DNA from: Escherichia coli
GTDB taxonomy: Bacteria > Pseudomonadota > Gammaproteobacteria > Enterobacterales > Enterobacteriaceae
Assembly (NCBI RefSeq): GCF_048403405.1
Contig: NZ_CP183129.1
Strand: one strand, 5' to 3'
Length of the DNA: 64,000 nt
The position numbers and the translations under genes were made by a program. Positions 52,674 to 53,175 of this stretch are shown one piece after another. The notes below the pieces were generated by a model, which did no database searches, was not told the DNA's origin, and worked only from the letters and a program-made list of their open reading frames with translations. The stretch's first letter is position 1, and each line of letters begins with the position of its first letter.

Positions 52674-52994
52674 CTATTCCTGCCCTTTGACCTTGCGTCG
52701 CTGGAGTTCTTCACGCGCGACGGTGACGAGTTGCCCGATCTCCTCGGCGGCTTTGACTCCGATTTTTTCAACCTGCGCTAGGGCATCGAGCGAAGAAACC
52801 AGGAGGTTTTCTCCGCTTCCTTCTGCCTGGCGGCGGGCGATTTCACCGCGCATGGCGGTTACTATGAATCCGGCGTTGCTTTCACCGTCCAGTTTTACGG
52901 ATTCCATGCCTTCAATAACATCATGCGGGATCCGAGCTGTCAGTGATTGTGATTTTGCGTTTTTTGAACCTGTAGCCATCTGTAATCCTCTCAA
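52674..52994 (-). CDS. hypothetical protein, candidate island repressor
   Basis: 106 aa on the minus strand, divergently oriented to the replication genes and directly abutting the dyad operators at 53001-53078. Confidence 0.5.
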   Translation of the reverse strand: MRGLQMATGSKNAKSQSLTARIPHDVIEGMESVKLDGESNAGFIVTAMRGEIARRQAEGSGENLLVSSLDALAQVEKIGVKAAEEIGQLVTVAREELQRRKVKGQE

Positions 52995-53175
52995 TGAAAG
53001 TGTAAGACAATATACACATAAAAAGTCTTACATAAAAGCATTGACATGTAAGCCACCTATAAATAAAGTTACTTACACCTTGTTAATGCAAGGTGCAGAA
53101 ACGACGAAACCCCGCACTGTAGGAGCAGTAACGGGGCTTCTAACCACCAACGATAGCAAGATTATCGAGGCAGCT
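52995..53175. promoter_or_regulatory. divergent promoter/operator region with two TGTAAG-N20-CTTACA dyads
   Basis: tgtaagac(53001-08)/gtcttaca(53025-32) perfect inverted repeat; second dyad tgtaag(53047)/cttaca(53072); ttgaca hexamer at 53041 between them. Confidence 0.65.

Follow-up and report, generated by a model that had tools for sequence, protein, structure and literature searches.

In Gram-negative phage-inducible chromosomal islands (PICIs), the helper phage turns on transcription of alpA, and AlpA activates the alpA promoter as well as the downstream island genes (PMC6092414; 10.1101/2022.09.08.507074; PMC11773190). Over-expression of AlpA alone triggers excision and replication of the island EcCICFT073 (PMC6092414), and an alpA-overexpressing strain was used for driving the reproduction of EcCIEDL933 (10.1101/2025.02.11.637232). 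The global repressor in these islands was called 'unclear' and what sets them apart from the Gram-positive islands under Stl control 'a mystery' (PMC6092414), the 'non-hypothetical' PICI genes were noted as unidirectional (PMC10111431), and later work treated AlpA as the only master regulator. Here we describe a divergent control region in a 64,000-nucleotide stretch of Escherichia coli DNA (contig NZ_CP183129.1; the whole stretch is termed the window), in which a small gene of the YlcI/YnfO family (NF041551; DUF3950) faces the replication genes of such an island across two predicted promoters and four short repeats. The YlcI-like gene has no mention in the PICI literature searched. The region represents a familiar type of switch, built from an uncharacterised protein family, in satellites without a described repressor.

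The immI region of phage P22 is controlled by the ribbon-helix-helix (RHH) repressors Mnt and Arc, in addition to the antisense RNA sar. The present locus resembles immI in that the gene of a small putative RHH repressor is divergent from the promoter that its product would repress, in a predicted C-terminal helical extension, which Mnt possesses for oligomerisation, and in a predicted short antisense RNA over the ribosome-binding site of the downstream gene, the candidate analogue of sar. In contrast, the sequence relation to Arc and Mnt is marginal, an icd-like gene and replication genes are controlled here instead of an antirepressor gene, and the operators are four single 9-bp sites spaced by 22-23 bp, compared to one compact operator of 17-21 bp in P22. 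We propose that the YlcI-like protein represses the replication operon, and also its own gene, in a sequence-specific manner through four 9-bp operators at back-to-back promoters, a reading to which we assign a probability of about 0.7.

Four sites at two divergent promoters

The interval between the YlcI-like gene and the rightward operon, together with the two flanking genes, contains the following elements.

52674-52979, minus strand: YlcI/YnfO-family gene (NCBIfam NF041551), 101 aa, candidate RHH repressor
53001-53009, plus strand: site S1, TGTAAGACA, where the leftward transcript is predicted to start
53011-53016, minus strand: predicted leftward -10 hexamer TATATT, inferred from conservation
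53024-53032, minus strand: site S2, TGTAAGACT, over the spacer/-35 area of the leftward promoter
53041-53069, plus strand: rightward promoter, TTGACA (53041-53046), 17 nt, TAAAGT (53064-53069), a 10/12 match to sigma-70 with a predicted start at ~53076
53047-53055, plus strand: site S3, TGTAAGCCA, abutting the -35 hexamer within the spacer of the rightward promoter
53069-53077, minus strand: site S4, TGTAAGTAA, overlapping the -10 end and +1 of the rightward promoter
53176-53379, plus strand: icd-like gene, first of the rightward operon (NF033153, E=5e-20; RefSeq annotation)

A preliminary description of this region had reported a perfect 8-bp inverted repeat, a second dyad 46 bp downstream and a TTGACA hexamer between them, placed between a small minus-strand gene and plus-strand replication genes. 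The first dyad is as described: its arms TGTAAGAC (53001-53008) and GTCTTACA (53025-53032) are complementary at 8/8 positions and lie 16 nt apart, which corresponds to TGTAAG-N20-CTTACA. The second dyad, consisting of TGTAAG (53047-53052) and CTTACA (53072-53077), indeed begins 46 bp after the first, with a spacer of 19 nt and not 20. TTGACA lies between the two and directly abuts dyad 2, and the flanking genes are the YlcI/YnfO gene on one side and, on the other, the icd-like/primase operon, which runs from the icd-like gene through the primase gene (53980-55812). The pattern TGTAAG-N15-25-CTTACA occurs twice in the 64 kb, both times here, against an expectation of 0.05 (0/100 shuffles reached two), and four of the 29 TGTAAG hexamers of the window fall inside 77 bp at this place. 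The repeat pattern is far beyond chance, and a scan of the island for further clusters of TGTAAG sites found zero.

Rather than two separate dyads, the repeats are better read as four 9-mers in alternating orientation with a regular spacing of 22-23 bp. Every site is a TG-N5-CA pseudo-palindrome, with TGTAAGNNN as the type of the window. The sites lie on both promoters, which points to repression rather than activation.

We compared the region with 18 related loci, composed of eight diverged E. coli islands, nine others (Edwardsiella, Pectobacterium, Photorhabdus, Klebsiella, Xenorhabdus, Erwinia, Serratia and one metagenome) and EcCICFT073, giving 19 with the window; the module is present in islands of about ten enterobacterial genera. 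In all 18 loci the YlcI-like gene is opposite in strand to the flanking small rightward genes and the primase gene, and int and alpA lie upstream in every locus but L018. With positions numbered from the first base past the YlcI-like start codon, the rightward -35 (TTGAC) sits at position 62 in 15/18 loci and at 63-64 in the remaining ones, and a rightward -10 of the form TAnnnT at positions 85-90 in 14 of the 17 loci with sequence there. The leftward -10-like hexamer at ~32-38 is kept in the 18 loci and reads TAnnnT in nearly all of them: TATATT in the window, TATACT in many loci, TATAAT in L014 and L016, and TAATAT as a further form. Loci encoding proteins of ~100 aa have sites at 22/23 (+), 45/46 (-), 68 (+) and 90 (-), whereas those encoding 59-aa proteins have three sites, at 23 or 52, 68 and 91-93.

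This fixed geometry bears on the possibility that the repeats have a structural role in the DNA, for instance as origin iterons, a centromere-like array or packaging sites. The even spacing recalls the centromere arrays bound by RHH proteins, the YlcI-like protein has a weak profile match to the RHH ParB of pCXC100 (3no7; E=0.4), and ylcI of K-12 adjoins nohD, with a lambdoid cos site presumably in between. Nevertheless, in all loci the sites hold fixed places relative to the -35 and -10 elements, the origin iterons (ACTGTTCACC) lie elsewhere at 55806-56050, and RefSeq annotates no partition ATPase gene nearby; a structural role has next to no likelihood in our view.

An alignment of 30 homologues of the YlcI-like protein revealed strong conservation except at residues 12-15, part of the N-terminal extended segment K-S-Q-x-x-x-x-R-(I/V)-P, and the sites change together with these residues. 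The islands with the strand SQSLTARIP (window, Edwardsiella, Pectobacterium and Klebsiella) all carry TGTAAGACA, CTTACA, TTGAC(A/G)TGTAAGCCACC and TACTTACACC; S1 is invariant among these Escherichia, Edwardsiella, Pectobacterium and Klebsiella islands, and the spacers and the ribosome-binding-site side vary while the TGTAAG sites stay. The islands with SQLTTVRVP (four E. coli loci, Photorhabdus and Xenorhabdus) all have TGTGTTTCA-type sites. The other strands and their sites are as follows.

SQQLNARFP: TGGTATTCA (L017)
SKKLEARVP: TGGCTGACA (L006)
SQKLQARAP: TGGAWTCCA (L007)
SQTVAARVP: TGTTYAACA (L005)
SQALKARVP: TGGGCCACA (EcCICFT073)

When the site 9-mers were scored against the intergenic regions, the resulting cross-matrix was largely block-diagonal by strand sequence, with off-block scores above 2 only between related sites (TGTAAGCCA with L006, and the site of L019 with L018). 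Over the 19 loci, the inner bases of the TG-N5-CA sites change along with residues 12-15, a relation of co-variation only. This co-variation, in addition to the overlap with the conserved rightward promoter, supports the earlier suggestion that the repeats are operators of the small divergent protein.

Comparison of individual islands separates the YlcI-like protein from its neighbors. It is conceivable that the repeats are binding sites of AlpA or the Icd-like protein and that the YlcI-like gene is a bystander, as AlpA is a known activator of downstream island genes (PMC6092414) and the Icd-like protein is labelled 'transcriptional repressor' by phrog_6196 and phrog_1743. However, L003 and L005 differ in their sites at 97% identity of AlpA and 90% of Icd, their YlcI N-domains being 46% identical, and the window and L003 differ in their sites despite 94% identity of Icd. 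Conversely, L003 and L004 share the same sites and a 100% identical YlcI N-domain at only 32% identity of AlpA and 45% of Icd. Moreover, the alpA promoter region of the window has a different palindrome and none of the TGTAAG hexamers of the window. Across these islands, the site sequence follows the YlcI-like protein, independent of the AlpA or Icd-like variant. On the co-variation we reject AlpA or Icd as the site-binding protein, and a bystander role of the YlcI-like gene is highly improbable. Megablast breakpoints at window positions 53049 and 53075 indicate cassette-like exchange of the repressor-operator unit.

The same module is found in EcCICFT073 (L022 10473-10852; NC_004431.1 1380473-1380852), with a 59-aa YlcI/YnfO gene (NC_004431.1 1380473-1380652) and three identically placed GGGCCACA-type sites, and with the leader hairpins likewise shared, so that the hypothesis is testable in an existing system. 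The YlcI-like gene of CFT073 has a new-style locus tag, from which we read that it was presumably added on re-annotation.

The YlcI/YnfO-family protein

The small minus-strand gene was previously given as 106 aa. Its strand is correct, and the frame from TTG at 52994 is only a mechanical one; the true product has 101 aa and starts from ATG at 52979 behind a GAGAGG ribosome-binding site, in agreement with RefSeq (WP_000190562.1, YlcI/YnfO family protein) and with the aligned homologues, nearly all of which begin with MAT, or MST/MPT. The protein matches NF041551 over model positions 1-42 of 42 with 71.3 bits, compared to a curated cut-off of 30 (E=4.9e-20). The family is a small one: a search of 1.84 billion proteins gave 105 cluster representatives at E<=0.001. 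The satellite proteins form a compact group, and the named close homologues all come from Enterobacterales. A tblastn search of the long and short proteins against 50,697 phage records gave zero matches.

In the AlphaFold2 model, residues 10-17 are extended (predicted local distance difference test, pLDDT, ~88-95) and followed by helices at 19-28, 35-54 and 59-100. The model of the N-domain has a pLDDT of 89 and a G-E-S turn at residues 32-34, and displays the strand-helix-turn-helix pattern of RHH proteins; as modelled, the N-terminal 55 residues most probably fold as an RHH domain. Alignment by hhalign placed the protein in register with Arc (E=0.006, probability 6%) and gave E=0.18 against Mnt, with hand-entered sequences of Arc and Mnt. 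In addition, 13/30 homologues have weak matches (E<=0.1) to Pfam PSK_trans_fac, which we take to belong to the RHH clan, and some UniRef entries of homologues are named 'Arc-like' or 'CopG'.

The family members fall into a long class of 101 aa and a short class of 59 aa, the former being the latter with a 42-aa insertion ahead of the common RRKxKEQE tail. The insertion (residues 52-93; window 52674-52850) coincides with four regularly spaced sites instead of three. AlphaFold2 models it with high confidence as a single continuous helix, residues 59-100. A profile search with the insertion found the helix-hairpin-helix (HhH) of Hef (1x2i) at E=0.027 and that of pol beta at E~1.3, and the nearly invariant I73-G74 agrees with a helix-hairpin-helix reading. 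On either reading, the insertion probably links dimers on adjacent sites.

We propose that the leftward promoter makes the 101-aa protein, the dimers of which would put their paired β-strands (residues ~10-17) into the major groove of the four TG-N5-CA sites. Binding at S3 and S4 would cover the spacer and -10/+1 of the rightward promoter and so silence the icd-like/primase operon, and binding at S1 and S2, at the start and upstream part of the protein's own promoter, would give negative autoregulation. In the long class, the C-terminal insertion would bridge the dimers on neighboring sites, and a further level of control may come from a small minus-strand antisense RNA that covers the icd-like leader.

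Several points weigh against this autoregulated repressor. The binding of the sites by the YlcI-like protein is predicted by co-variation only, and a spacing of 22-23 bp between single-dimer sites is unusual among RHH repressors. No -35 element was recognised in the leftward promoter. The sequence links to solved RHH proteins are weak: Foldseek searches of the PDB with the full-length and N-domain models returned no RHH match, and Pfam gave zero matches for the YlcI-like protein, with nothing significant in the 30 homologues and no helix-turn-helix (HTH) domain. We know of no reported derepressed mutant. Finally, over-expression of AlpA alone induces EcCICFT073 (PMC6092414), which has the same module, indicating that the repressor is not the sole gate.

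The leftward transcription unit contains two further elements.

52437-52616, minus strand: 59-aa open reading frame (ORF) downstream of the YlcI-like gene (phrog_21027, E=5e-15)
52350-52369, minus strand: hairpin resembling an intrinsic terminator at the end of the leftward operon, GGCGACCGCCCCCGGTCGCC then TTTGTTTTAT, without a T-run on the plus strand

This ORF encodes a basic protein and is probably co-transcribed with the YlcI-like gene. An RHH gene followed by a small basic ORF is the typical order of a toxin-antitoxin pair, and S1 and S2 lie on the protein's own promoter; the YlcI-like protein could in that case be an RHH antitoxin, with repeats that serve autoregulation only. Against such a pair, the downstream ORF is missing in about half of the islands with a complete set of sites, PADLOC and NCBIfam gave no toxin match, and the rightward promoter is always overlapped by at least two sites, for which an autoregulating antitoxin would have no need. 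By position only, without a comparison of homology, L003, L007, L009 and EcCICFT073 have a small hypothetical ORF annotated leftward at the same place, and the other islands have none. With its partner so often absent, we judge a toxin-antitoxin pair to be very unlikely.

By the curated model, the same family includes YlcI and YnfO of the cryptic prophages DLP12 and Qin. These two are uncharacterised, and their genes belong to the late region of lambdoid prophages and not, as here, to the control region of a satellite. In DLP12 of K-12 (L021 4252-4835), ylcI is divergent from the terminase small-subunit gene nohD, with 388 bp between them, an interval that we take to be the expected place of the lambdoid cos site. 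K-12 YlcI has a clear RHH-like pattern of strand-helix-G-S-G-helix.

Leader hairpins and a candidate antisense RNA

The leader of the rightward transcript, from 53076 onwards, is conserved even where the repressor cassette differs. Its elements are as follows.

53076-53095, plus strand: 5'-terminal hairpin of the rightward transcript, CACCTTG-N6-CAAGGTG; conserved in most loci and present as a CCATTG/CAATG variant in L020
53095-53176, minus strand: candidate cis-antisense RNA, ~75-80 nt with approximate ends, that would cover the leader and ribosome-binding site of the icd-like gene
53107-53139, minus strand: hairpin with a U-rich tail, the terminator-like 3' end of the candidate antisense RNA; 11 pairs, nine with compensatory changes
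53151-53167: third hairpin, just upstream of the ribosome-binding site

Altogether 13/16 leader pairs have compensatory changes, compared to 5.1 +/- 1.3 in shuffled and <=5 in slid controls. The hairpin at 53107-53139 is followed by an invariant CTAACCA. There are 12 G-U pairs on the minus strand and 0 on the plus strand, and the U-rich tail of the minus strand reads GGGGUUUCGUCGUUUCU. An extended -10-like element, TGGTATGAT, lies at 53191-53183 on the minus strand; nearly all loci keep a -10-like hexamer, in most cases of the form TAnnnT, at 4-10 nt from the reverse-complemented start codon, although the encoded icd-like N-termini differ. The candidate RNA has a fold z-score of -4.0. The covarying hairpin, the G-U pairs confined to the minus strand, the U-rich tail and the -10-like element suggest that a small minus-strand cis-antisense RNA may cover the icd-like ribosome-binding site.

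An Icd-like ORF after a structured leader, which a small RNA may control, recalls the CI RNA of P4 and the c4-icd-ant operon of P1, the former also in an enterobacterial satellite. By contrast, the candidate RNA here is antisense from the opposite strand and not processed from a sense leader, and a candidate protein repressor is present as well. In Rfam searches with 49000-57000 at E<=1 and with 52980-53400 at E<=10, neither C4 nor isrK nor any other credible family matched, which leaves RNA immunity of the P4/P1 type unsupported.

Island context and relief of repression

The window carries a capsid-forming PICI (cf-PICI) between yhdJ and fis. The island has int, alpA and a primase gene together with its own major capsid, protease, portal, head-tail connector, HNH, TerS and TerL genes and no tail genes, as in the cf-PICI class defined previously (10.1101/2022.09.08.507074). 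The 801 bp around the switch are 100% identical to an island of E. coli strain 4621, which in the RefSeq annotation starts with an integrase gene, a hypothetical gene and an alpA-like HTH regulator gene, followed on the opposite strand by the YlcI/YnfO-family gene. Next come Icd-like, hypothetical, DUF4222 and P4-type primase genes, and 3' of the primase gene those for major capsid, prohead protease, portal, head-tail connector, HNH, TerS and TerL. Family searches on the window proteins are consistent with the RefSeq island assignments. An IS1 element stands between acrS and yhdU in strain 4621 (L001 6590-8211); the corresponding window segment, 47966-48837, is without IS1, so that the window stems from another strain with the same island.

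Other features of the window island are listed below.

52010-52040: perfect 14-bp inverted repeat GTGATATCACATAT-AAA-ATATGTGATATCAC, ~60 nt upstream of the alpA-like start codon
52103-52324, plus strand: alpA-like HTH regulator gene (phrog_2790 'excisionase and transcriptional regulator'; RefSeq HTH regulator)
55806-56050: iteron ACTGTTCACC / GGTGAACAG, ~9 copies in two opposed sets, downstream of the primase gene

The iterons are the probable replication origin of the island. The palindrome at 52010-52040 is unrelated to the TGTAAG sites and is likely a control site of the alpA promoter, for AlpA or a helper-derived signal; alpA-like genes have an activator role in such islands (PMC6092414). 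A Pfam scan of the 245-aa gene between int and alpA found zero domains, and no antirepressor was identifiable in the window island. PADLOC gave zero defence-system matches for five small proteins, and blastn of the region against the phage collection had a sole match of 75 nt, inside the icd-like gene.

With int, alpA, a P4-type primase gene, iterons and a full capsid/portal/protease/HNH/terminase set, the window island resembles the AlpA-controlled EcCICFT073 and EcCIEDL933, and shares with EcCICFT073 the YlcI-like gene, the sites and the leader. The difference lies in the control described, as the literature searched has AlpA as the master regulator and leaves a global repressor unclear. The back-to-back promoter pair separates the int-alpA module from the replication operon, and int and alpA share the plus strand with the replication genes, opposite to the YlcI-like gene.

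This gene order also bears on the likeness to the Stl of Staphylococcus aureus pathogenicity islands, to which the preliminary description had compared the control region, and to the Rpr of Gram-positive PICIs. The shared traits are an island-encoded regulator between the integration and replication modules, divergence from the replication operon and intergenic operators. However, Stl is a larger HTH protein, whereas the proteins here are of the RHH type, 59-101 aa long and without an HTH; int lies on the repressor's side and in its direction there, whereas int and alpA here precede the switch in the same orientation as the replication genes; and the documented induction of this island family proceeds via AlpA. 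The Stl-like assignment thus fails, and of the proposal of an island repressor there remains, on sequence grounds, a protein that is very probably a repressor of the replication operon and is not an Stl homologue.

A mechanism of the Stl kind, as the preliminary description proposed, could still operate: a helper-phage protein would bind the YlcI-like protein, as the master repressor, and take it off the operators. It shares the position and operator logic of the autoregulated repressor, the extra 42-aa C-terminal segment of the long class could be a docking surface, and the specificity of sites and strands is highly exchangeable, as in immunity-type modules. On the other hand, Pfam and NCBIfam show no homology to Stl, the 59-aa class is too short for a separate sensor domain, and induction of EcCICFT073 and EcCIEDL933 needs AlpA, with the helper acting on alpA transcription (PMC6092414; 10.1101/2022.09.08.507074). 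We consider direct removal by a helper protein rather unlikely; a helper-encoded anti-repressor is conceivable as no more than one of several ways of relief.

For the autoregulated repressor that we favor, we infer a place below or parallel to AlpA, because AlpA suffices for induction, and relief of repression most likely goes through AlpA. In one route, transcription from the alpA promoter would cross the repressor gene in the antisense direction and enter the replication operon; such read-through is possible because the hairpin after alpA has its T-run on the minus strand only. In another, relief would come from the AntA/Bro 'antirepressor' proteins that are placed after alpA in many sister islands. 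AntA or Bro-N genes stand directly after alpA in L002, L004, L009, L010, L012, L014, L019 and L020, and the window island is without such a gene; the AntA/Bro-N proteins are candidates for inactivating the YlcI-like repressor.

More tentatively, and at odds clearly below even, these elements may form an overlooked, exchangeable immunity-type module of Gram-negative PICIs and cf-PICIs, including EcCICFT073, that acts below AlpA. Such a module would combine a YlcI/YnfO RHH master repressor, its cognate 9-bp operators and a cis-antisense RNA, its specificity classes would correspond to incompatibility or immunity groups among co-resident satellites, and AlpA or the co-transcribed AntA/Bro proteins would override it. 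The 'missing repressor' of the Gram-negative PICIs would then be supplied, which would help to relate their control to the Stl-type control of the Gram-positive islands.

If the YlcI-like protein is indeed a repressor, a layer of maintenance and immunity would be added to the model of satellite induction, and the uncharacterised YlcI/YnfO (DUF3950) family would gain a function. The islands would also provide a natural set of orthogonal small repressor-operator pairs.

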